Shown piece after piece: positions 13,236 through 45,746 of a stretch of DNA of 64,000 nt. Below the pieces are notes generated by a model that was not told where the DNA came from, did not search any database, and worked only from the letters and a program-made list of their open reading frames with translations. Numbering within the stretch: position 1 is the first letter of the stretch; the number at the start of each line of letters is the position of its first letter. The stretch comes from an uncultured delta proteobacterium (lineage in GTDB: Bacteria > Myxococcota > Myxococcia > Myxococcales > Myxococcaceae). The stretch spans positions 64,001-128,000 of the forward strand of contig CAVYSY010000054.1 of assembly GCA_963771175.1 (NCBI GenBank), in the 5' to 3' direction. Position numbers and translations under genes: made by a program.

Positions 13236-13296
13236 AGGTGTCAAAGGACTCCTTCCGTTTCGAAGCCTTTGACACCCTATTTCGACACCCTATTTC
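13236..13296. repeat. REP-like palindrome, copy C, with a 13-bp terminal tandem duplication
   Basis: Perfect inverted repeat GGTGTCAAAGG...CCTTTGACACC; GACACCCTATTTC twice (13271-13296). Confidence 0.85.
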
Positions 13297-14702
13297 TTCA
13301 GGTCGAGCAGGAAGATGTCGCTCTCCCCGTGCGGGGTCAGCATGCCCGTTCCGAAGTCCACCGGTGCGTGGAAGTCCCCGAGGACGGTGCTCTCTCCCTT
13401 GCGATTCACGGCGATGTCCATGGGACGCACGAAGTCCGAGGCGTAGCCACGCACCCACCGGAGGTCTCCGTCGTCACTGTCGAACCGGGCGACGAACAGG
13501 TTGTCCTTGCTGCCCGGCCGGCCCTCCGGGCGTTTCGAGCCGATGCGGTCACCGGTCTCGTAGGTGCCCGTCACCACCACCCCGTTGCCATCATCCATGC
13601 CGAGGGCGCGCCCCGTATGCCCGAAGTGTCTCACCCAGCACTCGTCGCCATCCCGCTCGTAGGCGACGAGGAAGGCGTCATCCCCGCGGCCCGCACGCAC
13701 CGTGTGCCCGCGGAACGGGAAGCTCTCGAAGAAGGAGCCGGTCATCACCACTCGGTTGTCCTGGACGGCCACGTCCGCCGCCACCCCCTTGGCGCCCACC
13801 AGACGCCGTGTCCAGCGGAGGGCGCCTCGTGGCGAGTACTTGCGCAGGAGCGGATCCCCCACCGCCTCGATGGTGACGTGGGTGCCGCTGACGTAGAGGT
13901 TGTCATGTTCGTCCACCGCCAGACCGACATCCAAGGTGCCCAGCTCGCGGTCGAGGGTGCTCCAGAGCGACTCACCCTCGGACGAGAGCTTCACGAGGAA
14001 GCCCGAGGAGCCCTCGGCGTCAAGGGGCCCCTGTCCGAAATCCACGACTCCGTTGTACCAGCCGGTCACGGCGATGTTGCCGGCCCTGTCCGTCACGACC
14101 CGTGTCGCATTGAGGAAGCCCGTGCCGGGGAATCCGCGCGCCCAGAGGAAGCGGCCCTCGCTGTCGAGCTTCACTACGTAGCGCTCGAATGACAGAGGGC
14201 CACCGCCGTAATCGATGGTCGAGTCATTGCCGAGGTAGCCCGCGAGCACGATGTTGCGCTCCTTGTCGACCGCCACCGTCCTCACGTTCGTGAAGGCGCT
14301 GATGAAGGGACCGGGTGGCACAGGAGTGAAGATGCGGAACCACAGCAGCCCGCCATCGGGGCGGTACTTCGCCAGTGCGATGCTGAAGGTTCCATCGGGC
14401 GGCCCGAGGATGGGACCGGTGCCGAAGTCGATGCTCCCGGAGAACTCTGTCAGCACCACGAGGTTCCCATCCGCGTCCCGGACGACGGCGATGGCACGCT
14501 CGTCACCCGTCCCGTCGATGACCCGGACCCAACGGGTCGCGCCGCGCTGGGACGGTGTGGCCCGGCTGGCTTCGAGCTCGGGCTCCTGCTCCGGGAGTGC
14601 TCCGGTTTCCAGGGGCCCTCCGGTTTCCAGGGGCCCTCCGCACGCCAGGCCCACCGCGACCACCCATCCCCATACACCCATCCACCTGGCCCACCGTTTC
14701 AT
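13290..14702 (-). CDS. Beta-propeller (SBBP-like repeat) lipoprotein
   Basis: LAC lipobox; repeated D-x-x-GN-x-x-x-G...DFG-G...VKL-DG-x-x-W units; GGPLET twice near the N-terminus. Confidence 0.8.
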   Translation of the reverse strand: MKRWARWMGVWGWVVAVGLACGGPLETGGPLETGALPEQEPELEASRATPSQRGATRWVRVIDGTGDERAIAVVRDADGNLVVLTEFSGSIDFGTGPILGPPDGTFSIALAKYRPDGGLLWFRIFTPVPPGPFISAFTNVRTVAVDKERNIVLAGYLGNDSTIDYGGGPLSFERYVVKLDSEGRFLWARGFPGTGFLNATRVVTDRAGNIAVTGWYNGVVDFGQGPLDAEGSSGFLVKLSSEGESLWSTLDRELGTLDVGLAVDEHDNLYVSGTHVTIEAVGDPLLRKYSPRGALRWTRRLVGAKGVAADVAVQDNRVVMTGSFFESFPFRGHTVRAGRGDDAFLVAYERDGDECWVRHFGHTGRALGMDDGNGVVVTGTYETGDRIGSKRPEGRPGSKDNLFVARFDSDDGDLRWVRGYASDFVRPMDIAVNRKGESTVLGDFHAPVDFGTGMLTPHGESDIFLLDLKK

Positions 14703-15061
14703 CCTTCCTCCCTCCTCGACGGGCCCGAAGCAGGCCCATGCAAGGGTTGTGCACGGCCAGGAGGCAGAGAAGTGGACGCGAGGGAGGTACAAACGCCGCA
14801 TCCAAGACCCGAGCCGGGTCTGAAGATGGGGAGGGAGCCCACCTTCCTATCCTGGCAAGCATCGGCCGGCCCGGGGCAGGCAGGCTCACGGGACAGGGTG
14901 AACGCTCTCCTCTCGCATCCCTGACTGGGCAGGGAGCGTCCGTCATCGTTGAGATTCAGGCTGACCGGAGTCGGCGCCTCGGCGCGGAGCAGCCGGCATG
15001 CAGGCCATGAGACCTGAACGCCAGAGGCGCTTCCCTCAGCTCATGCTCGAGCGCGGAGCAA

Positions 15062-15685
15062 CTAGCAGGGGCCGGGGCCGGCGTGGACGCCGGTCTTCAC
15101 GCGCCCCTTGAAGATGCCGAGCGCCGCCGCGAAGCCGGTCACGCGCACCTTGCTGTAGCCGCTGACCTGTCCGCCGACGTTGAACCGGAGCGAGCAGTAG
15201 GCCGGCCAGCAGAGCCCGTTGCAGACGGCGGGGTGCCAGACGCCGGTGGTGGAGACGCTCCCCAGCGGCACCCACGAGCCGTTGTAGCCCCAGGCGTAGC
15301 CGGTGATGGCGATGCCCTCGCAGGAGCTCTCGGTCGTGATCGTCGAGGCCGGTACCGCCTCGACGAAGGCCTGGAAGGGCCGGCCGTTGACCTGCTGCAC
15401 CTCGGTGACGAACTTGTTGGCGCACAGCGGCTGGTCATAGGTGCCGTCGTTGGACGTGGCCGCGCTGTCCGCGTAGCCGCAGTTGGGGCTGTAGAAGGTG
15501 ACCGCCGCGCCGTCGGGCTGGGCCAGGCTCACCGCGCTGTCGGTGCAGGACTCGTAGAGGGCCTGCTCCCGGGTCTCCAGGAGCTCGTCCTGGGCCAGGA
15601 GCTGCTCCTCCTCCGTGGGCGCGCCGCACGCGGCCAGGAGCTGGGTTGCTGCGAGGAGGAGGAGGGAGGGGAGGGTGCGCTTCAT
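15062..15685 (-). CDS. Cys-rich hypothetical lipoprotein
   Basis: MKRTLPSLLLLAATQLLAAC lipobox; myxobacterial-style TREQAL motif; AAGGAG RBS. Confidence 0.75.
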   Translation of the reverse strand: MKRTLPSLLLLAATQLLAACGAPTEEEQLLAQDELLETREQALYESCTDSAVSLAQPDGAAVTFYSPNCGYADSAATSNDGTYDQPLCANKFVTEVQQVNGRPFQAFVEAVPASTITTESSCEGIAITGYAWGYNGSWVPLGSVSTTGVWHPAVCNGLCWPAYCSLRFNVGGQVSGYSKVRVTGFAAALGIFKGRVKTGVHAGPGPC

Positions 15686-15814
15686 GTGGGCAACTCCTTC
15701 GTCATGTCGGGTAGTGAGTGGCTGCACCCTGGTAACGGAGTGGGTCGCGCATCTTCCCGCGCCCATTTTCGGGCGGATTTTCCCGGGCCGGCGCTTCATC
15801 GCCCTCGTTTAGAC

Positions 15815-18612
15815 TCAGGGCATGCTGTTGGGATCCGCTGGGTTGCTGCCCGCGGCCCGCTCGTCTCCGTCGAGCACCCCGTCGAGGTCACGATCTACGC
15901 CGATGCGCTGTCCAGACCCCAGGGGCGTGCAGGTATAGGTCAGCACCCCTTTGCCCGCGACAACGAGCGTGCTCAGGGCCGCGTCGGAGATCGGGGGCAC
16001 GGCCTCTCGGTCGCTCTTGAACTGCCCGCCTCCCAGGTAGAGGAACCCCACCTCGTGCTGGGCGAGGCGGCCCTTGGCGACCAGCTCGCACTCGCCCGCC
16101 TCCGCGCGGTCCTTCAGCAAGTGGATGCGGGGCGCCGCGGCCGCATGGTTGTCAGCCGTGAGCGTCACCTGCTGGCCGACGATGGGCGCCAGGTTGCTGT
16201 CGAACGCCAGCATGAACTGCTCCATGTCCCGCTTGGCTTGGACGCCCGCGGGCGTGTGCGGGATGCCGACGGGGTTCAGTGGGCTCTCATCGAACAGGCT
16301 GTTGAACCGGAACAGGTCCGGGATGGTGCCGTCGTGGTTGAAGCCAAAGCCGCGGATCTGCTCCCCGAGGAAGGGATCGGGCCCGAGCGTGTTGGTGGTG
16401 AAGCCCGCGCCGAACATGCCGACCTTCTGGTACATGTTGCGCAGGTGCGGGACCTTGAGGAACTGCGGCTCCCCGTCGAAGGACGAGCGGCCGTCCGTCC
16501 CGAAGAAGCCGGCGAAAGCTCCCTCCCCTGGGTTGGCATGTGGATCGACCCGGTGGCAGGTCTCGCACGAGCCCTGCGGATCGACCGTGGTCCCGAAGAA
16601 GAAGTCCCGCCCTGCCTGCTGAGCAGGTGTGAGCGAGTTATCGAGGTTCCGGATCGGGTTGGGCGGGTAGGTGAGCTGGAGGATGAAGTCGGTGAACTGC
16701 TGCATCTCCGCGTCGGAGAGCTGCGCGGACCGCCCGAGCAAGCTCACGAAGGTGGGGTTGAACTTCTTGAACGCGGCGGCCTCGTCGAAGGCCCCGCTGT
16801 TCGGCTGGGAGCTGGGCGCATCGTTGCCACCGGTGCGGTCGCCGCGCCAGTGCATCGGGCCGTGGTTGGCCATGCCACGCAGGCTCTGCGTCGTCATCGG
16901 CCCCTTCAGCGGGTGGAAATCGGGGTCAAAGCCGAACAGGGGATCGTCGCCGAACGGAGGCAGCGGCGGGACGAAGGGGCCCGGGTTGTTCAGCACGGCG
17001 CCGTCCGGATCGCCCAGGTCCCACGCCAGGCTGTCGAAGTCGCCGAAGATGTGGCAGCTGCCGCAGGACGAGTCACCGTGGCTGGAGCTGCGCCGCGCGT
17101 CGTACAGGAAGGGCCGCCCCGCCACCACGCTGGGGGGCTCGGGGTTGTACATCGGCACGTGAGCCAGCTCGCCGCGCGTGGCGGTGTCGATGATGGAGAT
17201 GGCGTTGTCGAAGCGCGTCAGCACGTACAGGCGCCCGCGGGCCTCGTCCAGCACCATGCCGGTAGGGCCGCCGCCGCTCAGGAGAATCTGGTTGGCCGGG
17301 CCAGGCACGAAGGTGTCGGCCTCGAGCGCGGCGGTGGAGTAGACGCCCAGCCTGGACGAGCCGAAGGCGGCTACGTAGAGGGTGGCGCCGTCTGGAAGTG
17401 ACCGCCATGCCGAGCGGCTGCGCCAGGCTCTTCTCACTCTCCGCATTGGGGAGCGGGGCGCAGCACGTGCCGTAGTCGATGTGCTTGTTGAGGTGGCGCG
17501 GGGTGACGCCCGCGGGGCTCAGCACGGTGATGCGGCTCTCGTGCAGATGCCCCCGGAGCGTGCTGCCGCCGAAGAGGCCCGCGCCCTCGAAGCGCAAGTC
17601 GTTACGCGCCTCGGTATTGCTGACGTACACCTTCCCGTTCACCGGGTTGACGACCATGTTGAACAGCACCGTGCCCACGCCGGAGTAGAAACCACCTGGG
17701 CCCGCGAGCTGCGCCGGCGGATTGGCGTTGGCGTCGATGACGAACACGTCCTTGTCCGGCAGGGAGAACTTCACCTGGTCATCCCACGGGCGGTTCAGCA
17801 CGTCGACCCAGTGCTCGCCGTTGAACTTGACGATGAGCCCCACCTCGGGCGCTGGCACCCCCGCGAGGTTGGTGTTCGGTCCGGGCACGCCGCCGGCTGC
17901 CTCGCCGCCATCGGGCACCTGCAATTCGCTGAGCACCGTGGTGCGATTTCCAGAGTGGAACGCGGCTGCGTAGACACGCGAGCCGTCCGGCGTCACCGCG
18001 AGTGCTCGGGGCGTGTCGCTGAAGAGGGTGAGGATCGTGAGCGGGCTGCCCCCGAGCGAGGTGCCCAGGTGGGCGGCATCGAATATCCAGACATCGGCCC
18101 GGCCGATGCCCGGCGTGGTGAGCTGCGGATCAAAGGGAGCGTTCTGGCCACGGTGGGCGGTCGTGATGAAGGCGCGGCTCTTCCCGGGCCCGGCGAAGAC
18201 GATGTCCCGAGGCTCGTCGCCCACGAGCAGGGTCCGCACGACGCGTCCGCTTCTCTCCGCTCGGGCTGAGCCGCACGACGCTGACGCTGTCGGACAGGTG
18301 ATTGACAACCCAGACCTCCTCGTTGCTCCGGGCCGCGACGGCGACCGGCTCGAGCCCGACGGGCACCGAGGCGCGGTGACGGAGGCCTGGGGTTCCGACC
18401 TGGAAGACCTCGAGGCGGTTGTCGGGTGTATTGACGGCGAAGAGGAGCTTGCCATCCGGCGAGAGCGCGAGCGGGCGGACCTGGCCGCTCTCGAAGAGCG
18501 TGAAGGACGGTGCCACCGAGGGCACACCGCTCGCTGAAGAGCAGATGAATAACGCCGCGATGAGAATGGATTTGGAGATGGCCTGGCTGGCCATCCTCGT
18601 CAGTGCTGTCAT
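15815..18612 (-). CDS. Secreted YVTN/YncE beta-propeller fused to a di-heme cytochrome c peroxidase/MauG-like domain (two frameshifts)
   Basis: [34 protein letters not shown] repeats; two CxxCH motifs (CGSCH, CETCH); TQSLRG, HWRGDR, KVPHLRN. Confidence 0.8.
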
Positions 18613-18769
18613 GATTTCCCCCGTGGCGTTGGTCACTGAGAAGCTCAGTCACCTGCGATGCTGCTGGCCACCTGGGGACGTCTACCGGATGCAAGGTTCG
18701 GAGGGACCAGCCCCTCGGGGCAGGTCCATTCACGATGTTGGCCGTGAAGCGGAATCCTTGGAGCGCAGT

Positions 18770-19675
18770 TCAGAAGCTCAAGCCGATGCCGGCGAACGGG
18801 CCGCCCATCCTGTCCCGGTGCCGCTCCCCGTCCAGGAGGCCGCGATCATCCAGCAGTAGCCCGCGCCAGCCTCCGCGCAGGGTCAGCATGCCCAGGTGGA
18901 CCGCCAGGCCGAGCTGTCCGTCCAGTTGCAGGTGGGGGAAGGGCACCCACTGCATTCGGCCCTCCAGGTCCAGCGCGCCGAACAGGCACCGCTCGAAGGA
19001 CAGGGCCATGTTGGGGCCGATGAAGATGGCGTCCGGTGCGCGCGCCCAGGCGAGACCACCTTCGACCCGGAGTCGGCCCCGCTCGCTCGCGTACGCCGCG
19101 AGTGTCACGTTCGCCTCCGCCAACTGGAGGTGGTCCGTCTCGTCCGAGCCGTCATCCGCGCGCAGGTTCATCGCCGTCAGCCGCGTGGAGACGCCCCAGC
19201 GGCGCCCCTCGAGGCCCAGGCCGAACCCCAGCGCCCCGCCTTCCTTGAGGGCGAGCCCCTCCACTCCCATCCGCACCAGCAACGAGTGGTTGGGCTCATC
19301 CGCCTCCTGCGTCGTCACCCAACGCGAGCGGCGGTAGTACGCGCCCGCGACGGCGGGAACCCATACAGGGCGCGGAATGATGACGGGCCTCACGGAGTCG
19401 GGGTCCGGGTTCTCGTCACCGTTGTTCGAAGGGGCACCGTCCGGCTCCTGTCCCACCGGCGTGGCGCGATGGACCCGACGGCGGGGACTGTCGGTGCGGT
19501 AGGCGTGGAACCTCCACCCCATGGAGCCGCCGGAGACGCGGGCGCCACCGGAAGAAGACGAGCCCCCCGAGGAGCGGGAGCCCCCCGACTTGCCGAAGCG
19601 GGCATCGGCGGCGGCGGGGGTGAAGAAGCACCCGGCCGCCAGCGCGGCACACATCATCTGCCTGGGGGTTGGCAC
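18770..19675 (-). CDS. Secreted/outer-membrane beta-barrel-like hypothetical protein
   Basis: GTG start after AGGAG; signal peptide ending ADA; G/S-rich linker; amphipathic strands; terminal Phe (GLSF). Confidence 0.7.
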   Translation of the reverse strand: MPTPRQMMCAALAAGCFFTPAAADARFGKSGGSRSSGGSSSSGGARVSGGSMGWRFHAYRTDSPRRRVHRATPVGQEPDGAPSNNGDENPDPDSVRPVIIPRPVWVPAVAGAYYRRSRWVTTQEADEPNHSLLVRMGVEGLALKEGGALGFGLGLEGRRWGVSTRLTAMNLRADDGSDETDHLQLAEANVTLAAYASERGRLRVEGGLAWARAPDAIFIGPNMALSFERCLFGALDLEGRMQWVPFPHLQLDGQLGLAVHLGMLTLRGGWRGLLLDDRGLLDGERHRDRMGGPFAGIGLSF

Positions 19676-19927
19676 AGGGAGGTCTCCTGGGAAAACGTGC
19701 CAGCTCATCCCAGCATGTTCCCCGCCCGCGTTCCTCCGCTCCTCCGAGGGGTGACACCTGCCCGACAGGTTGATGGCCGGTTCATGAACACAGCCGCGCC
19801 AGTGTTTTCGCAACGTGACGGCTCCGAGGGGATTCCCATTCGCTGAGAAATAATCAGGCCTCGGGTCCCTCCTGACTCGCGCGGCGCGGACGCCCGTGAG
19901 AGCATGGGCGATGGCGGAGGCCCGGCG

Positions 19928-21622
19928 ATGACGATTCGCGCCAAGGTGTTGTTGTTCGCGGCGATGGCCATCGCGCTCGTATGCCTCATGGGCGTTCACC
20001 TCTTCGTCGGCGCTCGCAACGGCCGGGTGATTCGCGAGCATCTCACGGCCACCCAGGGGCAGCTCGACGGCCTGGGCCGGGTGAGTGCCATGGCCTGGCC
20101 CTACCTCAACGAGCTGGTCCAACTGCGGCATGTGACGGGGAGCACCGAGCGCGTGCGGCTCGAGTTGCTGGAGCGGCTGGAGGTGGAGCTGGCATCGCTC
20201 GAGGAGAGCATGACTCGGGAGTGGCGGTTGCTGCCGGAGAGGACTCCCGAGGTCGAGCGGCGCGAGCAGGAGGAGCTCCGGAAGGACCTGTGGCGATGGG
20301 CGGAGCGGGCGGAGGCGCGCGTGAGTTCCATCCCACGGGGCTCGCCGGTCGGCTCCGTGGTGGAGTGGTCGCTGTACACGGAGTTCGAACAGACCGTGGG
20401 CCGGCGCATCGAGGAGATGCGGCACGCGGAGCAGGCCGAGATGGACGTGTTGCGTCTACGGTGGGACGAGAGCGAGCGGACCGGCCAGCAGCTCGCGATG
20501 CTCGTCCCCGCCATCTGCATCGTGCTCGTGCTGGTGCTCGGCTTCGCCATCCTCGTCCCCATGCAGCGCTCGCTCCGGAGGCTCACGGAGGTGGCCGAGC
20601 GCATCGGGCGCGGGGACTTCGATATCCGCACCGCGGTGGCGGGCCACGACGAGTTGGGCACGCTCGCGCGCGCCTTCGACCGCATGGCCGGCGAGCTCCG
20701 GACGATGCTCGACGAGAAGCAACGGCTGATACGGGCCGAGGCCGAGTCCTCCGAGCGCGAGGCCCGCCGCTACCACGCCCTGCTGGAGGGGATGGTGCTC
20801 GCGCGCACCGCGGATCTCGGCGAGGCCAACGCCCGGCTGCAGGAGAGCCTCCAGCAGCTCCAGGAGGCCCAGGAGCAGCTCCTCTTCGCGGATCGGCTCG
20901 CCTCCGTGGGGCGGCTCGCCGCGGGCGTGGCGCATGAGATCAACAACCCGCTCTCCTTCATCCTCAGCAACCTGCGCTTCGCCCGGGGCGAGCTGCGGGA
21001 CCTGGTGAGTGCGCCCTCCGAGGAGGACCGGCAGGAGTTGCTGTCGGCGCTCGACGAGGCGCATGAGGGCGCCGAGCGGGTCCGCTTCATCGTGCAGGAC
21101 CTCAAGACGCTGTCGCGGCCGGATGACGTGGCGCTCAGCGCGGTGAGCCTGGAGTCGGTGGTACGCAGCGCGGCCAAGATGGCGCACCACGAGGTGCGCG
21201 ACCGCGCGCGGCTGGTGCAGGAGTGCGACGGGGTGCCTCCGGTGCGCGCCAACGCGGCACGGCTGGGTCAGGTGTTCCTCAACCTCTTCCTCAACGCGGC
21301 GCATGCCATCGACCCGGGCCGCGAGAGGGAGAACGAGATTCGCGTGGTGGCCCGCGTCTCCTCTCCGGGCCGGGTCACCGTGGAGGTGCGCGACACCGGC
21401 TCCGGCATTCCGGCCGAGCACCTCGGGCGCGTCTTCGAACCGTTCTTCACCACCAAGCCCATCGGCATGGGCACGGGGCTGGGGCTGCCGGTGTGCCATC
21501 GCATCATCACCGCGCTCGGCGGGGAGATTCGCGTCGAGAGCGAGGTGGGGCGCGGCACCACCTTCTTCATCACCCTGCCCGCGGCCGAGGACTCCGGCAC
21601 TCCCGCGCAGTCGGCGGCCTGA
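19928..21622 (+). CDS. HAMP-domain sensor histidine kinase
   Basis: Two TM helices; HAMP DELGTLARAFDRM; H-box AHEINNPL; NLFLNA, DTGSG, FFTTK, GTGLGL. Confidence 0.93.
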   Translation: MTIRAKVLLFAAMAIALVCLMGVHLFVGARNGRVIREHLTATQGQLDGLGRVSAMAWPYLNELVQLRHVTGSTERVRLELLERLEVELASLEESMTREWRLLPERTPEVERREQEELRKDLWRWAERAEARVSSIPRGSPVGSVVEWSLYTEFEQTVGRRIEEMRHAEQAEMDVLRLRWDESERTGQQLAMLVPAICIVLVLVLGFAILVPMQRSLRRLTEVAERIGRGDFDIRTAVAGHDELGTLARAFDRMAGELRTMLDEKQRLIRAEAESSEREARRYHALLEGMVLARTADLGEANARLQESLQQLQEAQEQLLFADRLASVGRLAAGVAHEINNPLSFILSNLRFARGELRDLVSAPSEEDRQELLSALDEAHEGAERVRFIVQDLKTLSRPDDVALSAVSLESVVRSAAKMAHHEVRDRARLVQECDGVPPVRANAARLGQVFLNLFLNAAHAIDPGRERENEIRVVARVSSPGRVTVEVRDTGSGIPAEHLGRVFEPFFTTKPIGMGTGLGLPVCHRIITALGGEIRVESEVGRGTTFFITLPAAEDSGTPAQSAA

Positions 21623-21798
21623 GCAGGACGGCGGCGCGGGCCGGCGCGTGTTGGCCGTCGGACGTACGGCGGGTGCAAGGGCTTTCCGAGCGCAAACTGT
21701 TCAACGCTCGCACGCGTGAAATTCCTCACGCCCCCAGCGTCGGGAAACCGGCATCCCCATGCTGTCGTCGCAAGTCGTCCAACACATGGAGGTCACGG

Positions 21799-22200
21799 AT
21801 GCCGCCGCGTGGAGTGAAGAACCCGAAGCGAGTGAGGCAGTACCAGAAGATCAAGCAGTCGGCGCGCAAGCAAGGCGCGAGCGTGGGGCGGGCCGAGGAG
21901 CTCGCCGCCCGCGTGGTGAACAAGCAGCGCCGCAAGGCGGGTGAGACGAAGGGCGCCTCCAAGCGCTCCTCGACGAAGACGGCGGCGAAGAAGCTCGCGT
22001 CCAGTTCGCGCCGTGCGAAGCCGGCCCGCGGCACGCGCAGCACCGGGGCCAAGTCGCGCACCCTCAAGGCGGCGGGCAGGACGGGCCGCAAGACGGGCAC
22101 CACGTCGCGCTCGAGCAGCCGCTCCGGCGCCTCTCGCAAGACGAGCAGCTCGTCGCGCGCCCGCGGCCGGAGCGCCTCCTCGTCGCGCTCGAAGAAGTAG
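21799..22200 (+). CDS. Small highly basic K/R/S-rich protein
   Basis: MPPRGVKNPKRVRQYQKIKQSA...AEELAARVVNKQR with a histone-like tail; GGAGG RBS. Confidence 0.75.
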   Translation: MPPRGVKNPKRVRQYQKIKQSARKQGASVGRAEELAARVVNKQRRKAGETKGASKRSSTKTAAKKLASSSRRAKPARGTRSTGAKSRTLKAAGRTGRKTGTTSRSSSRSGASRKTSSSSRARGRSASSSRSKK

Positions 22201-22252
22201 CTGAGGGCGCGAGCAGTTGACGGCCGTGCTAGCTTTCGTGCCACGGTCCTCC

Positions 22253-22930: not shown

Positions 22931-22939
22931 GAGCCCGGC

Positions 22940-22958
22940 ACGAATCGCCTGACACCTT
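22940..22958 (+). repeat. Half REP-like element
   Basis: ACGAATCGCCTGACACC matches 8771-8787 at 16/17. Confidence 0.65.
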
Positions 22959-23097
22959 CGCTGGGCCACGGGGCGCGCGAGCCCGTTCACCACGTCGAGC
23001 CGCCCGCCAGGCCGGGCTGCGGCGATGAGCTGCTCGGCGTGCTCGCGCACCAGGGTCCGGATGTGCTCCAGGTCCTCCCGGCGCAGCGCATAGCGTC
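22959..23097 (-). pseudogene. Cytochrome P450-like internal fragment
   Basis: ALRREDLEHIRTLVREHAEQLIAAARPGGRLDVVNGLARPV resembles P450 helices C-E; no start codon, no heme motif. Confidence 0.5.
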
Positions 23098-23343
23098 GTG
23101 CTGTGCTGTGGCGCAGTATGCGCCGACTCCAAACCGACACGGCGGGAACAGCGCCCGAGTCTAGCGAAACCGGCTCGCCATCGCATCGCATGGCGCGAGC
23201 GCTCGGGTTTCCAGACGCCCTTCCGGCCAGCGTCGCTGACGCTCCGACTGTGGCGGGCCCCTGGAAGAGAAGTCCTACGGCCCCCTCGCCATCGCCCGGT
23301 TTTTAGGGTAAATGTGGATTTCCAATTTTCAAAGGAGTTGAGC

Positions 23344-30617: not shown

Positions 30618-31757
<1,140 letters not shown>

Positions 31758-33549: not shown

Positions 33550-33553
33550 GCCC

Positions 33554-35379: not shown

Positions 35380-35381
35380 GT

Positions 35382-37411: not shown

Positions 37412-37416
37412 CGACG

Positions 37417-38400
37417 TCAGACCTCGCCGGACCGGCTGCGACCAGCAGCGGCGGCGCGTGCAGGTAGCGGGTCGGCGCGCCGCTTGGCTGTCGATGTCCC
37501 GGTAGACGCGCTCGACCTGCGCCTCGGTCGAGGCCGACCGCCGGCGCCACCTCCGCGGCGGGCACGCTGGTGGTCGTGCGCGTAGAGGCACAGGTCCATG
37601 CTGTCGTAGGGCAGCGCGAAGTAGAACTCCTCCTGCGTCTGCGGCATGCGAGTAGGTGTCGGTGGTCGGCGGGCGCGCGGCGGATCTCCTCGGGCACGCC
37701 GAGGTAGCTCGGCGAGCGCGTAGACCTGGGTCTTGTAGAGGTGGGCGATGGGCTTGAAGTCGGCGGCGCCGTCGCCCTGCTTGACGAAGAAGCCCTGGTC
37801 GTACTCGAGCCGGTTGGGCGTGCCCGCCACCGCGTAGTTGAGCCGGTCGGCGTGGTAGTACTCGATCATCTTGCGCACGCGCTGCTTGAAGTTGGTGGCG
37901 GCGACGAGCTGCAGGTAGGCGTCGAGCGGCATGCGCGCGGTGCGCAGCTCGCCCGCGGGGTCTGCGACGGTGAGCTGGGAGACGTTGAGGCGCTCGCTCT
38001 CGAGGATGGACGGCAGCGTCATCTTGCAGCGCCAGCCCTCGCCGTAGTCCGGGAAGACCGTGCGGATGGCCTCGTCCTGGCGCGCGTAGCAGCCGGCGGC
38101 GGCGAGCGTGGGCGCGATGTCCTCGACGGCGGACGCGACGCCGAGCGCCTCGACCACCTGGCGGCCGAGGCGCAGCGAGTCGGCGGAGGAGTCGCGCTCG
38201 GGCATGAGGAGGCCGAGCACCCGCTCCTGGCCGAGCGCCCGCGCGCAGAGCACGGCGACCACCGAGCTGTCGATGCCGCCGGAGACGCCGACGACCGCAC
38301 CGCGGCGCTTCAGGTCTCCGAGCACGTGCTCGCGGATGGCGAGCTCCGCGTCACGAGCGACCGACGCGGCGTCGATCTCGAGCACACTTTTCGAGAACAT
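37417..38400 (-). CDS. nadE: NadE-like ATP pyrophosphatase (NAD synthetase paralog), frameshifted
   Basis: [48 protein letters not shown]. Confidence 0.85.
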
Positions 38401-38678
38401 GGGCGGCCCCCCCCGGGCTCCACTCCCTGCTGCATGGCCTTGGCTCCGCAAGGACCCTACGGGAGACGACCAGGGCATCCCTGGCATTGGATGCCAGGAT
38501 TGGCGTCTCACGGCAGAGTTTGTATAGGAGGGGAACTCGCCGCGAGCTGTGAAGCGAGGAGAAGACGGCTGCTTGACAATGAATTTCGGAAAAGGCGCTT
38601 CCGGACTTCAATGGGTTCGTGAGCCGACTTTTCTCCTGCCCAACCGTATGAGGCGCGCGGGACCGTCAGCGCGGCCAC

Positions 38679-39565
38679 TCACTGCCGAGCGATTGGGGCG
38701 GCGGCTTGGCGCTGAAGATGGGCGCGTAGCACTCTCCCTGGTGCTCGTAGAGATCGTCCGGGCATGGGGCCTTGAGCCGTGAGGCATCCAGCAGGCGCCC
38801 ACCAGCTCTACCTGGACGTGGCGAGTGCAGGGGGGGCGCTTCTGTCCTTTGAAGGGCTCGCGAGGCAGGGGCCGGGCGAGCACAGGCTCCCCCTGGGGCG
38901 TGGTGTCCGCGAGCCAACCGCTGCTGAAAGGGTCCGGCGTCTCGACTGCCGTCGGTACCTCGTGGCTCACGGGCGCTGGCGCGGCTCTCGCCAAGGGGTC
39001 CGCACCGCTCGGCGGTTGGGACTCGGGACACAGGCGGACCAGCGCGAAGAGCAGGGCACACACCCCGGCGGTGCCCGCCAGCACCAGCCCCAGGCGCCGC
39101 CAGGGGCGAGGCTCGTGGGAAGTAGGGACGACCTGGGCCATGCGCCCCACTCCCTCGCGCACCTCCTCGAACGTGCACACCAGCGACTCCACGGAGTGCC
39201 TGTCGGGGGCAACGGACCAGGGGGTGTGCTCCACCTCCATGGCGAGATAGCCCGGGGACGCCGAGGAGATGCAGCGCACCCTCCAGTCCGTCAGCGGCAC
39301 CCGTCCTCGGTGGCGGGCTTGAGCACCAGGGCCGTTGCCCCGCTCGTCTCGTGTGTGGCCCGGTAGAGCTCCCCCTGGCTGTGCGCGGCCTGCGGCACCT
39401 GCTCCTGGATGCGGTACGGCCCCAACTGCTCCGGTTCCTCCCGGCTCGACTCGGACTTCTTCTTCGTGCCCACGCGCGCTCCTCGCTGGCCTCTCCGCCT
39501 GCTCGAGGCCTGAGGCTTCTATCTGCACCGGGTTGAGCCCCCGCTCCAGGAGGTGCACGGTGCAT
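38679..39565 (-). pseudogene. Degenerate Ser/Thr-kinase-derived membrane protein, copy 1 (frameshifted)
   Basis: LGPYRIQEQV...GELYRATHETSG (kinase N-lobe-like), a TM helix, then Cys-rich PFKGQKRPPC...GACW...PCPDDLYEHQGECY; paralog at 43647. Confidence 0.65.
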
Positions 39566-39772
39566 CAGGGGGTGCCCTACTCCACAGGTGCTGAACCTCA
39601 CGCTCCGCGGCAGCGTGGCCCGGGCGCAGTGTCTGCATGAGCTGAGAACGGCCTCCGCGGCTGGCCTCACGTGGCTGGCGCAGCGCAGGGACAAGAGCGC
39701 CACCTTCCAGCTCGTGGGTCTCGGGCGCCCACTGAATGTGCAGAAGAGCCGGAATTCTGGCAACCTCGGGGG

Positions 39773-40312
39773 ATGAATTCACTGGCTCGTCGGTATCGAC
39801 TCACGCTCGTGTCGCTGCTCCTCGCGGGGACGGTGGGCTGCGACCAGGTCACCAAGCAACTGGCCATTCCGCAACTCCGTGACGAGCCTGCCCAAACCTT
39901 CCTGGGCGGGTTCCTGCGGCTCGCCTTCGCCGAGAATCCCGGCGCGTTCCTGAGCCTCGGCGGCGACCTTCCTGGCCCCGTGCGATTCTGGCTGCTCATC
40001 ACGGGCGTGGGCCTGCTCCTCCTCGGCGCGCTGCTCTACCTCGTGATGAGCCGCCGGCTCGGGCGTCTCCATTCCGCGGCGCTCGCCCTGGTCGTTGGCG
40101 GCGGAGTGAGCAACTGGTTCGACCGCCTGGTGAACGATGGACGTGTCGTGGACTTCATGAACCTCGGCATCGGCTCATTGCGCACTGGCATCTTCAACGT
40201 GGCGGACGTGGCCATCATGCTCGGCGCCGGACTGCTGCTTCTGGCTGCGCGAGGAGCGAACAGCGTTGGAGCAGGACCGGGGGGCTCTGACCAGGGGGGC
40301 TCCCTGGCGTGA
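39773..40312 (+). CDS. lspA: Lipoprotein signal peptidase II paralog
   Basis: DQVTK, NPGAFLS, GGVSNWFDR, VVDF, FNVAD. Confidence 0.92.
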   Translation: MNSLARRYRLTLVSLLLAGTVGCDQVTKQLAIPQLRDEPAQTFLGGFLRLAFAENPGAFLSLGGDLPGPVRFWLLITGVGLLLLGALLYLVMSRRLGRLHSAALALVVGGGVSNWFDRLVNDGRVVDFMNLGIGSLRTGIFNVADVAIMLGAGLLLLAARGANSVGAGPGGSDQGGSLA

Positions 40313-40325
40313 GTGGGGGCCGCGC

Positions 40326-41474
40326 TCACGTGAGCGCGAAGGTGTAGCCCGCGACGAGCCCGAGCGTCACGATGACGAACAAGGCCGTGAGCGCCACCAT
40401 GAGGCCCTCGTGCACGCGCTCCCGCTTCCCCAGGAGCCCGAGCGCCAGGCACACCGGAAAGGCAATCATCACGTAGCGCGCGAGGCCTTGGATGGACTGG
40501 GTGGACAGCGGGAGGAGCAGGCCCAGGAGCACGTAGGCGGCGAGCGCCCACCGCTTGCGCCGGGCCCAGAACCCCACCGCCCAGAACCCCACCAGCGCGG
40601 CGGCGAAGTTGAGCAGCTTGAAGTTCCAGGGCACGGCCACCTCCCAGGGCCGCCGCAGGTAGTCCCACAGCGGGGCCAGGAAGAACCCGGCAGTGCGTCC
40701 CCAGGCGGACCTGGATGTCGCTGAACGCGAGCGCGTTGCCCGTGAGGTCTGTGCAGGAACGCGGCGAAGGCCAGCAACCCCACCGGCACGAGCAGCAGCC
40801 AGAGGGCATCGCGGCGTGGACGCCCCGGGTTGCGCTCGAGGTACAGCAGCGCGAGCGCGGGCAACAGCAGCAGCCCGTTGGGACGCGAGGCCGAGGCGAG
40901 CGCACCCGCGAGGCCCGCGAGCCACATCCGCCCCGTGGCCGCTCCCCAGAAGCTCGCGACGCACAGGAGCAGGAAGATGCGACTCGGTCGTGGGCAGCGA
41001 GAAGAAGACGCTCGTCGGCCACAGCGCCGTGTACAGGACGGCCCGGCGCGCCGCCGCCTCCTCCAGGCCGAGCGCCAGGGCCAGCTCATGGAGCAGCACG
41101 AGCGCGAGCAGCAGCAGCACCGTCGAGAGCACCATGCCCGTGACGCGCACCTCTCCCGTCACCTGCCCCGCCGCGCGCATGAGGAGTGGCATCACGGGGA
41201 AGAAGGCCCAGTTGTGTTGCCGGGCCACATCGAAGGGGATGGCCTCGTAGCCCTTCTCGGCGATGCCGACATACCACTCGCCATCTCCGCGCATCGCGAG
41301 CTCGGACAGCGCGGGTCCCCCACCGGCGGCCAGTCCCTCATTGCGCAACCCGGGCCAGGGCGGGCGGTTGGCGGGCACCAGCCCCACCAGCACGAGCGCG
41401 AGCACGAGGGCCCGGGAGACGAGGAAGGCCCACCCCGCCGAGCGCAGGGAACTCCATTGGCCCCCGGTTTTCAT
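40326..41474 (-). CDS. GT-C mannosyltransferase-like membrane protein (PIG-V/GT76-like), frameshifted
   Basis: RGDGEWYVGIAEKGY, AFFP, PTSVFFSLPTTES, SRPNG, RYVMIAFP; many TM helices. Confidence 0.8.
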   Translation of the reverse strand: MKTGGQWSSLRSAGWAFLVSRALVLALVLVGLVPANRPPWPGLRNEGLAAGGGPALSELAMRGDGEWYVGIAEKGYEAIPFDVARQHNWAFFPVMPLLMRAAGQVTGEVRVTGMVLSTVLLLLALVLLHELALALGLEEAAARRAVLYTALWPTSVFFSLPTTESHLPAPVRRELLGSGHGADVARGPRGCARLGLASQRAAAVARARAAVPRAQPGASTPRCPLAAARAGGVAGLRRVPAQTSRATRSRSATSRSAWGRTAGFFLAPLWDYLRRPWEVAVPWNFKLLNFAAALVGFWAVGFWARRKRWALAAYVLLGLLLPLSTQSIQGLARYVMIAFPVCLALGLLGKRERVHEGLMVALTALFVIVTLGLVAGYTFALT

Positions 41475-41484
41475 GCGCGGGAGT

Positions 41485-42402
41485 CTACTCACGGACCTTC
41501 CCGGACAGCCGCTCGGGAATGCGCGCAACGAGCACGTCGATGGCGGCGCGCACCTTCGAGGGCAGGTGCTTGTTCTGTGGCCAGACGGCGTAGATTTCAT
41601 TGCCGTAACGGCGCTCCTCCTCCAGCACCGTGACGAGCCGTCCGTCGCGCAGGCGCTCCGCGACGAGCCAGCACGGAAGCCACGCCAGTCCGGCGCCCTG
41701 CACCGCGGCGTCAGCGATGGTCTCCACGTCATCGAAGCGCAGGCGCGAGGGGACCGACACGAGCTGCTCGCCCCCCTGCCCATCCGGGAACCGCCAGGGT
41801 TTGGTGATGCCGTTGCGCCCATAGACGATGGCCTCATGGCCGTCCAACTCCCCGAGTGTCGCGGGACGGCCGTGCCTGGCGAGGTAGGCCGGCGCGGCGC
41901 AGACCACCATCTCCTGGGCGCCCAGCCTGCGAGCCGTCAGGCCGGCATGGTCCGCCAGGGGCGCGACGCGCACCGCCAGGTCGTAGCCCTCCTCGATGAG
42001 GTCCACCACGCGGTCACTGAAGGAGACCTCCACCTCCAGCCTGGGATGCTGGTGGGCCAGCTCCCAGAGCAGGGGGGCCGCGCAGTGCCGGCCAAACATC
42101 ACCGGCGCACTCACTCGGAGGCGGCCGGTAGGGGCGCGGCGGCCAGAGTCAAGCGCCGCCGTGCCTGCCTCCAGCTCCGCCAGCGCGCGCACGCAGCGCT
42201 CGTAGAAGGCCTGACCATCCTCGGTGAGGCTCTGCCGCCGTGTGGTGCGCAGGAACAGGCGCGCTCCCAGGTGCGCCTCCAGCCGGGCAATGCTCTTGCC
42301 CACAGCCGAGCGCGACAGGCCCATTCGCTCGGCGGCGAGCGAGAAGCTCCCGGCCTCGGCGGCCTGGACGAACGCGAGGATTCCGCTGAAGCGCTCCATC
42401 AT
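41485..42402 (-). CDS. LysR-type transcriptional regulator
   Basis: GSFSLAAERMGLSRSAVGKSIARLE, LFLRTTR, DLIEEGYDLAVR; divergent from the MDR gene. Confidence 0.95.
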   Translation of the reverse strand: MMERFSGILAFVQAAEAGSFSLAAERMGLSRSAVGKSIARLEAHLGARLFLRTTRRQSLTEDGQAFYERCVRALAELEAGTAALDSGRRAPTGRLRVSAPVMFGRHCAAPLLWELAHQHPRLEVEVSFSDRVVDLIEEGYDLAVRVAPLADHAGLTARRLGAQEMVVCAAPAYLARHGRPATLGELDGHEAIVYGRNGITKPWRFPDGQGGEQLVSVPSRLRFDDVETIADAAVQGAGLAWLPCWLVAERLRDGRLVTVLEEERRYGNEIYAVWPQNKHLPSKVRAAIDVLVARIPERLSGKVRE

Positions 42403-42521
42403 GACTCCGCTCTCATTGGCGACTTCGTGTCCGCGGTGAACCGACGGGATGTCGCTACTGGAGAAATCCTCTCGCCTCTATATCCCCCTCGACTCTTCCA
42501 CGCACTGACCGGGAGCAGACG

Positions 42522-43544
42522 ATGGGTGGCACGATGAAGCGTTGGCAGTTGTGGCAGGCGGGCCGGGGAAACCTGGAGTTGGCGGACGTGGCGATTCCCA
42601 GCCCGGGCCCGGGCGAGGTCCTGGTCCGCGTCTCGGCGGTGTCACTCAACTACCGCGAGAAGCTCTTCCTGGACGGGGCTGGGTACGCGAATGCGCCCGG
42701 GCCGTATGTCCCGACCTCCGACATGGCGGGGGAGGTCGTCGCCACCGGGGCGGGCGCCCACCGCTTCAAGGAAGGCGACCGGGTCCTCGCCAACTTCCAG
42801 ACCGACTGGGTAGACGGCGCGGTGCCTCGCGCGAATGGCGGAGTGCGCAGTCTGGGCGGCAGCGTGCCGGGCGTGTTGGCCGAGTACGTGGCCATGCCCG
42901 AGAGCTGGCTGGTGGCCTCACCCGGAACGCTGGACGACGTGCAGGCGAGCACGTTGCCGTGTGCCGGGCTCACCGCCTGGACCGCACTGGTGGAGTTGGG
43001 GGGGCTGCGCCCGGGCCAGACGGTGGTGACGCAGGGCACGGGCGGCGTGTCCCTGTTCGCCGTGCAGCTCGCCTCGGCCATGGGCGCGCGGGTCATCGTG
43101 GTCTCGGGGGATGAGGACAAGCTTTCCCGCGCGAGGGGGCTGGGCGCGGCCCACGGCATCCATCGTCGCCACACGCCGGACTGGGAGAAGGCCGTGCTCG
43201 ACCTCACCCGGGGCGAGGGCGCCGACCACATCCTGGAGTTGGTCGGTGGCGCCAACCTCGCCCGCTCGGTGAACGCCCTTGCGTCCGGCGGGCGCATCTC
43301 CCTGATTGGCGTGCTGGAGGGCTTCGAGGTCCGCTTCCCGGTGATGCCGCTGTTCCAGTCGCAGGGCATCATCCAGGGCATCTTCGTCGGACATCGGCGC
43401 GGCCTGGAGAACCTGGTGCGCGCGGTCGACCGGCTCTCGCTCAAGCCCGTGGTCGATACCGTCTACCCGCTCGCCGACTTCCCGAAGGCGCTGGAGCACC
43501 TGGACCGCGGGCCCTTCGGCAAGCTCGTGATTCGCGTCCGCTAG
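42522..43544 (+). CDS. MDR-family NAD(P)-dependent oxidoreductase
   Basis: SLNYR, SDMAGEVV, LPCAGLTAW, QGTGGVS, FGKLVI. Confidence 0.92.
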   Translation: MGGTMKRWQLWQAGRGNLELADVAIPSPGPGEVLVRVSAVSLNYREKLFLDGAGYANAPGPYVPTSDMAGEVVATGAGAHRFKEGDRVLANFQTDWVDGAVPRANGGVRSLGGSVPGVLAEYVAMPESWLVASPGTLDDVQASTLPCAGLTAWTALVELGGLRPGQTVVTQGTGGVSLFAVQLASAMGARVIVVSGDEDKLSRARGLGAAHGIHRRHTPDWEKAVLDLTRGEGADHILELVGGANLARSVNALASGGRISLIGVLEGFEVRFPVMPLFQSQGIIQGIFVGHRRGLENLVRAVDRLSLKPVVDTVYPLADFPKALEHLDRGPFGKLVIRVR

Positions 43545-43556
43545 TCGCCGCGGCTC

Positions 43557-43610
43557 CCGGCGCCTGCTCGAGCGCCGGGGCCTGTTCGCCTGGTGAGGCC
43601 CGGCGGGGCT
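43557..43610 (+). repeat. Orphan 54-bp exact copy of the 3' end and flank of the radical SAM gene
   Basis: Identical to 47611-47664. Confidence 0.95.
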
Positions 43611-43646
43611 ACTTCGGCCTGTAGCGCCGACGATGCGCTGCGCCAC

Positions 43647-44257
43647 TCACTGCCCGAGCGATTGGGGCGGCGGCCTGGCGCTGAAGACGGGCGCATAGCA
43701 CTCCCCCTGGTGCTCGTAGAGGTCATCTGGGCAGGGGGCCTTGAGCCTGTGAGGCATCCAGCAGGCGCCCACCAGCTCTACCTGGACGTAGCGAGTGCAT
43801 GGGGGGCGCTTCTGCCCTTTAAAGGGCTCGCGCGGTAGGGGCCAGGAGAGTACAGGCCCCCGCTGAGGCTCGCCGTCCGCGAGCCAACCTCTGACGAAAG
43901 GGTCCGGCTTCTCGGCGGCCGTCAGCACCTCAGGGCTCACGGGCGTTGGTGCGGCTCTCTCCAAGGGGTCCGCACCGTTCGGCGGTTGGGTCTCAGGGTT
44001 CAGGAGGACCAGCAACAAGAGCACGGCACTTCCGCTCGTCTTGCGTGTGGCCCGGTAGCGTTCTCCCTGGCTGTGCGTGGGTTGCGGCACCTGCTCCTGG
44101 ATGCGGTAGGGCCCCAACTGCTCCGGTTGCTCCCAGCTCGACTCGGCCTTCTTCTCCGTGCCCACGCGTGCTCCTCCCAGGCCTCCTCGTTCGCTCAAGG
44201 CCTGAAGCTCCTATCTGCACCGGGTTGGGCGCTCGCTCCAGGAGGTGCATGGTGCAT
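43647..44257 (-). pseudogene. Kinase-derived protein, copy 2, with an internal deletion
   Basis: Highly similar to 38679-39565 but lacks about 270 bp between the TSG motif and the TM helix. Confidence 0.7.
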
Positions 44258-44306
44258 CAGGGGGCGCCCTGCCCTACAAGTGGCGTGGCTCTCTGGATCT
44301 TCCTGC

Positions 44307-44424
44307 CTACGAAGGTGTCAAACACCTCGTACGGCACAGGTGCAGCGCAACGCGCCAGGCGAAGTGTTTGACACCTTCCCCGACACCTTCCCCCGGGGAA
44401 GACGCCTCGTTCTTCCCTCTGAGG
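44307..44424. repeat. REPIN-like hairpin, copy D, with a 12-bp terminal duplication
   Basis: Inverted repeat GAAGGTGTCAAACACCTCG...CGAAGTGTTTGACACCTTC (18/19); GACACCTTCCCC twice; then GGGAAGACGCCTCGTTCTTCCCTCTGAGG, also present at 10977-11005. Confidence 0.85.
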
Positions 44425-44442
44425 TGCTCAAGCGCTCCGGCG

Positions 44443-45630
44443 CTACCGGTAGAAGTGGTCCGCGAGGAGGCGGGCGTTGAAGAGCATGGCGTCGTAGCTC
44501 GTGTAGACACCGTGCCCGAAGCACGTCGCCAGGCAGTTCGGCAGGGCGCCCGTGCCCCGGTCGCCGTAGTCGACGAGGTAGCTGAACCCGTCCCGCGGCA
44601 CGCGCGCGCCGTGGCGCACGTGCTGGAGCCACGCCTTCACGTCATAGCCCTCGCCGAGGATGGCATCGAGCCGCGCGGCCAGCTCCCGCTCCTTCGCGCT
44701 GCCCGGCGGCAGGTCCGAACCGGCGATGCCCCACTGATGCACGTAGTCGCCACTCTCGGTGTTGAGGACGCCGGCGACGGTGCTCCCGCGCGGCTCCGCG
44801 CCCCGGTGGTTGATGACGTGGAGGACGCGGCACCGCCGGCCCGCGGCCCAGCCATAGCGCGGCGGCATGCCGAAGGTGGCGATGTCGAGCCGCGCGCGGG
44901 CGACCCCGCGCGCCATCTCCTGCAGCGCCTCCGTGGGCTCGCCCGCGTCGCGCACGGCCTGCCAGAGCGCCTCCGCGGTCCGCGCCGGGTAGACGAGCTG
45001 CGTGAGCAGGGCGAGCACCTGGCCGCCATGGCTGTGCCCGAGCAGCAGCGTCCGCTTGCTCCCGAGCTCCGAGGTGCCCAGGAGCCGCAGCAGCTCCACG
45101 GCCGCGCGCAGGCGGGCGACGTGGTTGTTCGCCGAGGACCAGACGAAGCGCGTCGCGCGGAGGTCGCCGCCCAGCGCCTTCTCGAAGAGCGAGACGTACT
45201 CGGGGGTGTAGTTGCCGAGATCTCGCAGGACGCGATCGCTCGGGAGCTTGGAGAGGCGGCGCAGGGACGGCATGAGCCCCGGACTCAGCGCCGAGAGGGG
45301 CCCCTCGAGCGCGGCGAGCAGCAGGGTGGGATCATGGCCGACGAAGGTGCCATGCACGAAGACGACGTGGCGCACCCCGGCGCGGCGCAGCCGGCGGCCC
45401 GCCTGCTCCATCGCCTCGCGCCAGGCGGGAGATTGGGCCTCGAGGACGGGCGTCTCGCGAGCGAACGGCGGCATCGCTTCGCGCGCCCGCACCGCGAACG
45501 TCCCGGGCCGCGGCGCGGCGTCGTACTGCTGGGGTTGGCAGAGGGCCGGCGTCGGGCGGAGCCGCCACGCGATGACGAGCCCGGCGATCGCGGCGGCGAG
45601 GAGGAGGAGCGTGAGGGCGAGCCACAGCAT
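44443..45630 (-). CDS. Membrane-anchored alpha/beta hydrolase
   Basis: N-terminal TM helix; FVHGTF; FVWS; GHSHGG nucleophile elbow; late His (FGHG). Confidence 0.75.
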   Translation of the reverse strand: MLWLALTLLLLAAAIAGLVIAWRLRPTPALCQPQQYDAAPRPGTFAVRAREAMPPFARETPVLEAQSPAWREAMEQAGRRLRRAGVRHVVFVHGTFVGHDPTLLLAALEGPLSALSPGLMPSLRRLSKLPSDRVLRDLGNYTPEYVSLFEKALGGDLRATRFVWSSANNHVARLRAAVELLRLLGTSELGSKRTLLLGHSHGGQVLALLTQLVYPARTAEALWQAVRDAGEPTEALQEMARGVARARLDIATFGMPPRYGWAAGRRCRVLHVINHRGAEPRGSTVAGVLNTESGDYVHQWGIAGSDLPPGSAKERELAARLDAILGEGYDVKAWLQHVRHGARVPRDGFSYLVDYGDRGTGALPNCLATCFGHGVYTSYDAMLFNARLLADHFYR

Positions 45631-45653
45631 GCCGTGGCAGCTTATCGGGAAGC

Positions 45654-45746
45654 CGGATGGGGTGTCCGGATGGGGTGTCAGACGACTCGTAGGGCGCGAA
45701 GGTCGGAACGAGTCCTTTGACACCTGACCGGGGACACCTGACCGGG
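45654..45746 (-). repeat. REP/REPIN-like element, copy E, with tandem duplications at both ends
   Basis: Reverse complement AGGTGTCAAAGGACTCGTTCCGACCTTCGCGCCCTACGAGTCGTCTGACACCC; CGGATGGGGTGTC twice and GACACCTGACCGGG twice. Confidence 0.88.

Follow-up and report, generated by a model that had tools for sequence, protein, structure and literature searches.

Tandem Duplications at the Ends of a Myxobacterial Repeat Family Probably Mark the Nick Site of a Tyrosine Transposase

In a stretch of 64,000 nt from an uncultured delta proteobacterium of the Myxococcaceae (assembly GCA_963771175.1, contig CAVYSY010000054.1, positions 64,001 to 128,000; henceforth the window), tandem duplications lie directly outside short hairpin elements whose arms end in GGTGTC and GACACC. 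In each of them the terminal GACACC is copied together with the adjacent bases of the flank. These end duplications are probably the scar marking the nick site of a transposase. A mechanistic scar had been put forward in the original prediction and is the best reading, since the duplication is specific to this repeat family; it also occurs in place and is one-sided. Its inner boundary is set to the base by GACACC, and the outer one roughly by distance. The elements themselves are of a known kind, i.e., a Y1 transposase with repeats of the repetitive extragenic palindromic (REP) or terminal inverted repeat (TIR) type, and the regular scar at their ends is what is new.

Non-Random Duplication of the Repeat Ends

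The four duplications of the window (table 1) read in the sequence exactly as originally reported. Within the second copy at 13271-13296, the minus-strand open reading frame (ORF) 13290-14801 has its TAG stop, which appears as CTA at 13290-13292, and the stop codon of the neighboring gene is thus indeed included. These are not classical target-site duplications, a point on which the original prediction was right: the left side of hairpin element 3 has two copies of CGGATGG and the right side two of TGACCGGG. The flanks had also been considered unique to each locus, which is the case for two of them only. CTATTTC (13271-13296) and TGACCGG (45719-45746) are unique genome-wide, whereas TTCCCC (44370-44393) is the family consensus, CCATCCGG (45654-45679) has a second occurrence at a copy on contig C21, and the heptamer after the hexamer is semi-conserved and subfamily-specific.

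The genome assembly searched has 9.83 Mb in 58 contigs, with 69.4% G+C and a completeness of 82%. A regular expression for a hexamer plus 5–9 nt, repeated twice, was applied to both strands of the whole genome. The comparison with control hexamers, as it had been proposed earlier, came out in favor of GACACC, which ranked first with 43 matches. The runner-up hexamers reached at most 13 and were all sub-strings or complements of GACACC units, and the best unrelated one, GCCGCC, gave 8 despite its 4.3 times higher genomic abundance. Exact tandem duplications with a period of 9–60 amount to 816, and GACACC is present in 52 of these; its share is 14/16 for period 13 and 8/15 for period 14. A chance origin of the GACACC duplications is excluded.

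Genome-wide, 156 ends were classified by the bases preceding the hexamer, and in 35 of them GACACC and the 6–9 nt after it are exactly duplicated. Class R (..TCCTTT) includes 18 exact cases and 6 additional ones within 2 mismatches among 86 ends, class L (..TCGTCT) 9 and 1 among 49, and class K (..GTGTYT) 8 and 3 among 21.

A Fixed Inner and a Floating Outer Boundary

The claim that units start at GACACC extends from the window to the genome: in 39 of the 52 hexamer-holding duplications the start coincides with the 5′ edge of the hexamer, and in 5 more it is offset by 1. Tandem repeats near the 156 classified ends start at offset 0 (n=32), −1 (n=3) or +4 (n=3). On the contrary, the outer boundary floats. 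Unit lengths in the genome are 12 nt (n=13), 13 nt (n=12), 14 nt (n=7) and 15 nt (n=5), and one and the same flank sequence shows several outer cut points (TTCCCG|, TTCCCGG| and TTCCCGGAG|). No motif is found at this boundary, the last two bases being CG in 10 cases, GG in 7, CC in 7 and others in 13. A nick at a fixed distance outside the hairpin, as originally suggested, is not in agreement with this picture, because the fixed point is the inner (5′) edge of GACACC in the basal stem and it is the outer boundary that varies, at 12–15 nt.

Mutated hexamers, namely GACACG and GGCACC, are doubled along with their own flank. Since two unique flanks and such privately mutated hexamers have been copied, the process copies local sequence, as opposed to inserting one constant oligonucleotide. 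Repeated insertion at one site, the other mechanism first envisaged, is not in agreement either, as the added copy keeps the flank of its own locus and brings no further element core. Longer arrays are concatenated modules, each ending at GGTGTC|, the hexamer inside the 52-nt hairpin being among these edges, and the unit length differs inside one array.

An origin by hairpin-induced replication slippage or template switching, with the transposase uninvolved, was weighed against these data. Hairpins stall polymerases, and those of this family fold stably, with z-scores of −2.2 to −5.1 in 4 of the 6 hairpin strands folded (as DNA, −13.4 kcal/mol and z −3.2 for hairpin element 1 and z −4.3 / −5.1 for hairpin element 2). 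However, slippage needs microhomology, and the end of the unit has none with the base that precedes the unit. The start is pinned to one phosphodiester in 39/52, variable unit lengths within a single array do not point to one amplified unit, and other genomic hairpins contribute almost nothing, the hexamer-free duplications being 2/16 at period 13 and 7/15 at period 14. The lack of microhomology, the mixed unit lengths and the silence of the other hairpins make generic hairpin slippage a poor fit, and this explanation is quite improbable.

Information content around the breakpoint is high from −13 to +6, moderate over the next 7 nt and nil farther out. The heptamer consensus after GACACC is TTCCCGG at one end and CTGSCCGG at the other, and the heptamers co-occur with subfamily-specific substitutions within the hairpin. 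As they travel together, the heptamers for the most part represent the extreme end of the element, where conservation is loose. The outer boundary may therefore be a real element end, in which case two sites would be cleaved, the hexamer edge and a true terminus 6–9 nt beyond it; the segment of 12–15 nt would then be exchanged between sister strands or re-integrated, and one product would gain a copy. The arrays, which resemble shuffled modules bounded by hexamer edges, are in line with this, and for IS608-type enzymes the cut at the right end is located about 10 nt 3′ of the hairpin. Yet the outer boundary shifts by 1–3 nt on one flank sequence and follows no motif, the reciprocal product (an end without the hexamer) is rare, with about 4 deviating repeat-context ends among those listed, and none of the units was seen to carry a foreign flank. 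Two-site cleavage is unlikely.

Concerted events at the two ends of a hairpin were also considered and found unsupported: among 32 hairpins both ends are duplicated in 3, one in 9 and neither in 20 (permutation p 0.20). The same independence bears on a staggered double-strand break, made at the hexamer edge and 12–15 nt outward on the opposite strand by the transposase or by a host nuclease acting on an extruded cruciform. Fill-in and joining would duplicate the overhang in tandem, with one boundary fixed by sequence and the other set by distance, in accordance with the observed anatomy. Nevertheless, the ends do not look as if the palindrome had been cut in a concerted way, and Y1/HUH enzymes are described as acting on single strands (PMC8266576), so that such a break seems very unlikely.

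The Repeat Family and Its Parent Element

The sequence TTGACACC has 177 genomic occurrences, which belong mostly to one repeat family with a small number of subfamilies. Asymmetric hairpins of 52 nt, GGTGTC AGACGACTCGTAGGGGGCGAGGTGTCGGAACGAGTCCTTT GACACC, are the most frequent form. Larger units of 1.04–1.09 kb are bounded by inverted GGTGTCAAAGG...CTTTGACACC and contain an ORF of 330–340 aa. A 16-nt TIR, CGAGTYCTTTGACACC, is common to the hairpins and to these units, and the inverted ends of the parent element read GGTGTCAAAGGACTCG ... CGAGTTCTTTGACACC. Short non-coding hairpins which share their ends with an autonomous element of the same genome conform to the definition of miniature inverted-repeat transposable elements (MITEs). 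Judged by their sequence, the hairpins are thus miniature, non-autonomous derivatives of the 1.04–1.09 kb Y1 transposase element.

The TGA stop of the ORF lies within the end motif and spans the proposed breakpoint (CTT T|GA CACC). The last transposase residues (ARVL or ARIL) are encoded by the inverted repeat, for instance in genome G000, contig C44, 35712-36701, and in other copies. GTAG (or GTAC) is located inside the 52-nt hairpins and was not seen at the ends flanking transposase genes. Within 9000-50000 of the window, no Rfam family was found at its gathering score.

A repeat-dense island exists on contig C49 of G000, where about 60 end motifs across 52 kb occupy most intergenic spacers. 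One orientation is shared by 11 of the 13 complete hairpins of this contig, which would fit strand-specific insertion. The genes amid the repeats are ordinary and varied (a methyltransferase, an HYR-domain protein, a Ser/Thr kinase, ApbE and BBE oxidoreductases).

The Transposase

The product of the 330-aa ORF is predicted, by sequence and by structural model, to be a REP-associated tyrosine transposase (RAYT)-like Y1 (HUH) enzyme. The NCBIfam model REP_Tyr_transpos is matched by all 21 aligned homologues (best E 2.7e-14), and the HxH motif (H83, H85) and Y142 are invariant across the 21 sequences. A search of PDB by sequence gave no match, and relatives were found via fold search alone. The best PDB match of the AlphaFold model (mean pLDDT 74) is 4ER8, with E 3.4e-5 and a template modelling (TM) score of 0.70 on the target; this entry is a RAYT bound to a REP hairpin. 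The ISDra2, IS608 and IS200 transposases are the next structural matches.

Residues 165-330 constitute a 170-aa C-terminal extension, which is conserved from Archangium to Acidobacteriota with the motifs PLPCW, HPHTRP and FPxxSFPP and is modelled mostly as helices. A Pfam scan of these residues, with E up to 10, returned two chance-level matches to other families and no Bac_DnaA_C, HTH_23 or HTH_28.

The gene is multi-copy and decaying, and besides the intact copies there are 3 full-length frameshifted ones and >12 fragments in the assembly. Several copies per genome are also present in Cystobacter fuscus. Named records with the family come from Archangium, Cystobacter fuscus and Vitiosangium, and more distant homologues (39–45% identity) from Acidobacteriota. 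A quick repeat scan of 5 acidobacterial homologue loci revealed no comparable ends. Upstream of two acidobacterial homologues, a 16-nt motif occurs three times with 20–24 nt spacing (L084:1019-1078) and a 37-nt motif three times (L087:828-988).

Distribution in Other Genomes, Strains and Reads

The pattern CTTTGACACC-N5-10-GACACC was detected in 16 of the 17 genomes of the same genus, in 1 of 7 from other genera of the family and in 0 of 16 from other families. The reversed control pattern had 0 matches in all 41 genomes searched. The same-genus genomes are distant, with 68% identity as the best match to the gene flanking in the window, and the five complete relatives examined for 52-nt hairpin copies have 2–12 per genome.

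The ends of 29 loci chosen by the pattern, a sample biased by this choice, are exactly duplicated in 28 cases, nearly so in 9, different in 4 and single in 32. Loci chosen by transposase homology in other Archangium/Cystobacter genomes provided 102 classified ends, of which 25 are exactly duplicated, 8 nearly so, 3 different and 66 single; the units there have 12, 13, 14, 15 and 16 nt (n=10, 8, 5, 1 and 1, respectively), in agreement with the genome of the window. About a quarter of the ends are duplicated in each genome examined.

This steady proportion might suggest that extra copies are retained as useful, for example as binding sites for the C-terminal domain of the transposase or for a host protein, and are spread via transposition of duplicated ends. 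Multi-site ends exist in other transposons, and retention is compatible with the other alternatives. Nonetheless, the doubling of unique flanks and of privately mutated hexamers indicates that at least many events are local, unit length and flank vary from locus to locus, and the idea speaks to maintenance and not to origin. As an explanation of the duplications it is very doubtful.

The assembly is a draft in 58 contigs, and an assembly or sequencing artefact might be suspected. The same structures were nevertheless found in complete genomes of other species and in Logan contigs of other runs, which renders an artefact extremely improbable.

Contigs of run X2 in Logan span the two element 3 duplications gap-free, X2 being possibly the source sample and thus not independent. 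The related strain X20, with about 1–3% differences from the window in long pieces, has the 44370-44393 duplication. This shows that the scars are inherited and not hypervariable, at least one of them predating the divergence. At 45654-45679, X20 has one extra base (window 45665) and hence a 14-nt unit instead of 13, which points either to a separate duplication event or to an indel of 1 nt within a run of G. Runs beyond X2 and X20 cover the stretch in short, divergent pieces, uninformative on the duplications. Orthologous loci were looked for in metagenomes with a 19-mer from the neighboring gene, which gave 4 loci where only the 19-20-mer itself matched, and these were discarded as chance matches.

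A Proposed Nicking and Resealing Mechanism

The mechanism towards which we lean, with reservations, is that the transposase nicks at N|GACACC and stays on the 5′ end, and that a 3′-OH 12–15 nt farther reseals the strand. In the first step, the enzyme would nick single-stranded DNA at N|GACACC. Its tyrosine would become covalently joined to the 5′ G, and the 5′ end would thereby be shielded from flap nucleases. A 3′-OH carrying the next 12–15 nt would then attack the phosphotyrosine and reseal the strand; this 3′-OH could belong to the nicked strand after short strand-displacement synthesis, or to the nascent strand at a fork. The product would be ...T[GACACC X][GACACC X]Y, which one round of replication would convert to a fixed tandem duplication. 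Repeated rounds, together with nicking of the 52-nt hairpin at its internal hexamer, may lead to longer arrays with hexamer edges.

The reactions required have been described for TnpAREP (PMC8266576). According to that account, the enzyme forms a 5′-phosphotyrosine link with a free 3′-OH, the latter may prime replication, and an added, unrelated "attacking" oligonucleotide can resolve the covalent link and is then joined to the DNA at the cleavage site. Both routes, priming by the 3′-OH and resealing by an attacking strand, are suggested there for REP spread (PMC8266576).

Several points weigh against this mechanism. Cleavage at N|GACACC is predicted from the sequence, and a family-specific host factor or a hairpin-specific nuclease would give the same statistics. 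The implied dinucleotide is T|G (C|A on the other strand), in contrast to the C|T reported for E. coli TnpAREP; the same source does report C|A for a single group 3 enzyme (PMC8266576). The breakpoint falls within the long hairpin's stem, a place where DNA is not obviously single-stranded, cleavage would have to occur on opposite strands at the two ends of an element, and the model does not account for the outer distance of 12–15 nt. As for the enzyme, its match to REP_Tyr_transpos (NF047646; E 1.8e-13) has 50.6 bits for a curated cut-off of 80, its match to Pfam Y1_Tnp 21.1 bits for a cut-off of 23, and only 2 intact genes exist in the 82%-complete assembly. Finally, the duplications look old rather than active, one being common to a strain that differs by about 3% along the aligned part.

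Two other models were examined and rejected. Excision leaving an empty joint as a common outcome was discarded, with 0 occurrences of GGTGTCGACACC (GGTGTC|GACACC) in the genome. Reciprocal deletion products were not accepted as a class either, as the approximately 4 repeat-context ends deviating at the hexamer form none.

Comparison with Known Systems

In mode of action and fold, the system is closest to the REP/RAYT systems (REPtrons; E. coli TnpAREP, PDB 4ER8; Pseudomonas REPINs). Apart from the Y1/HUH fold, which is closest to 4ER8, they have in common a gene with inverted copies, on either side, of a short palindromic repeat dispersed through intergenic DNA. A GTAG is located inside the main hairpin; in RAYT systems this tetranucleotide is expected at the 5′ foot of the REP hairpin. 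On the other hand, the gene is multi-copy and decaying and not single-copy and domesticated as in groups 2 and 3, its score is below the curated family cut-off, the 170-aa C-terminal extension is without a Pfam match, and the repeats behave as TIRs.

TIRYT/TIRtron elements (Di Nocera 2013, PMC3733652; subclass 2.1 of Quentin 2018, PMC6006769) similarly combine a RAYT-like gene with TIRs that are also a dispersed family. Relatives described in these sources are from Acidobacteria, and the nearest outgroup homologues here are acidobacterial (39–45% identity). In contrast, the present ends, (N)GGTGTCAAAGG, have no fit to the GGGGWSAS given there (PMC3733652, PMC6006769), and the C-terminal helix-turn-helix (HTH) domains named for that subclass (Bac_DnaA_C, HTH_23 and HTH_28) are undetected.

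With the IS200/IS605 family (IS608, ISDra2), the elements have in common the Y1 transposase fold, the lack of a classical target-site duplication and a putative break beside a short fixed motif, a hallmark of cleavage in that family as presented in PMC8266576. Unlike them, IS200/IS605 members have subterminal hairpins and not inverted repeats as ends, both cut on one strand, and their excision leaves a sealed donor joint, whereas GGTGTCGACACC is absent from this genome.

The proposed nick, 5′-phosphotyrosine, synthesis from the 3′-OH and rejoining of the displaced 5′ end also recall rolling-circle Rep proteins and conjugative relaxases. Here, however, synthesis would stop after 12–15 nt and leave a chromosomal duplication, and the resemblance is one of mode of action and not of membership. 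Target-site duplications of DDE transposons and MITEs are likewise short direct repeats beside an element end, but in the present case both copies are on one side and include 6 nt of the element, and the left and right ends duplicate different sequences.

Full-text literature searches, supplements excluded, retrieved no account of a base-exact end duplication of 12–15 nt, for REPs or otherwise, nor of this Archangium family. The way in which tyrosine transposases multiply REP-type repeats is still to be established, and the scar bears on that question. With one base-exact boundary and a presence at about a quarter of the ends across the genus, it predicts, in a form that can be tested, where the enzyme cleaves and what becomes of the covalent intermediate, in a branch of the family that is multi-copy and apparently still IS-like. 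It is conceivable, if somewhat doubtful as a whole, that the duplications are footprints of a "nick, prime, reseal" cycle of a RAYT-like Y1 enzyme, that they provide the first in vivo cut map (5′ of GACACC), and that end modules added locally are what makes REP/TIR clusters grow. If this footprint reading is true, local accretion would be the missing step in models for the spread of REP and bacterial interspersed mosaic element (BIME) arrays; if slippage or a host nuclease is the cause, the scar would be a curiosity of one repeat family. The elements also alter gene ends, as one duplication includes a stop codon.

Other Features of the Window

The remaining traces of the family in the window are given in table 1 together with the duplications and hairpins.

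Table 1. Coordinates of the end duplications, hairpins and related features in the window
Feature	Position	Strand	Description
Y1 transposase gene fragment	7812..7955	-	tblastn; residues 90-137, 81% identity to intact copy; contig positions 71812-71955
Solo end	11029..11049	+	...GTCGAGTTTGACACC (TTTGACACC at 11029-11037), then TGATAC x2 (11038-11049)
Hairpin element 1	13237..13276		40 nt, GGTGTCAAAGG...CCTTTGACACC, spacer separating two minus-strand genes; contig positions 77237-77276
Tandem duplication	13271..13296	+	2 x 13 nt, GACACCCTATTTC x2 = GACACC + CTATTTC
Hairpin element 2	44314..44375		62 nt, GTAC/GTGTTT ("K-like") subfamily
Tandem duplication	44370..44393	+	2 x 12 nt, GACACCTTCCCC x2 = GACACC + TTCCCC
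Tandem duplication, left end of element 3	45654..45679	-	2 x 13 nt, CGGATGGGGTGTC x2; minus strand GACACCCCATCCG = GACACC + CCATCCG
Hairpin element 3	45674..45724	+	51 nt, main 52-nt family, internal GTAG
Tandem duplication, right end of element 3	45719..45746	+	2 x 14 nt, GACACCTGACCGGG x2 = GACACC + TGACCGGG
Short palindrome	47665..47695		CCGGGAAGGTGTTTGACACCTTCCCGG; end motif and heptamer on both sides, without duplication
Solo end, GTACGAGGTGTTTGACACC type	48846..48870	-	Without duplication

In the solo end at 11029-11049, the flank TGATAC alone is doubled, and the repeat starts 6 nt past the usual breakpoint. A second short palindrome, GGGAAGACGCCTCGTTCTTCCCTCTGAGG, is located at 10979-11007 and 44396-44425, adjoining two hexamer ends. 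Together with the stretch ...AAAATGGCGAAAGTCGAGTTTGACACC, which is also found on contig C52, it suggests a further type of composite repeat.

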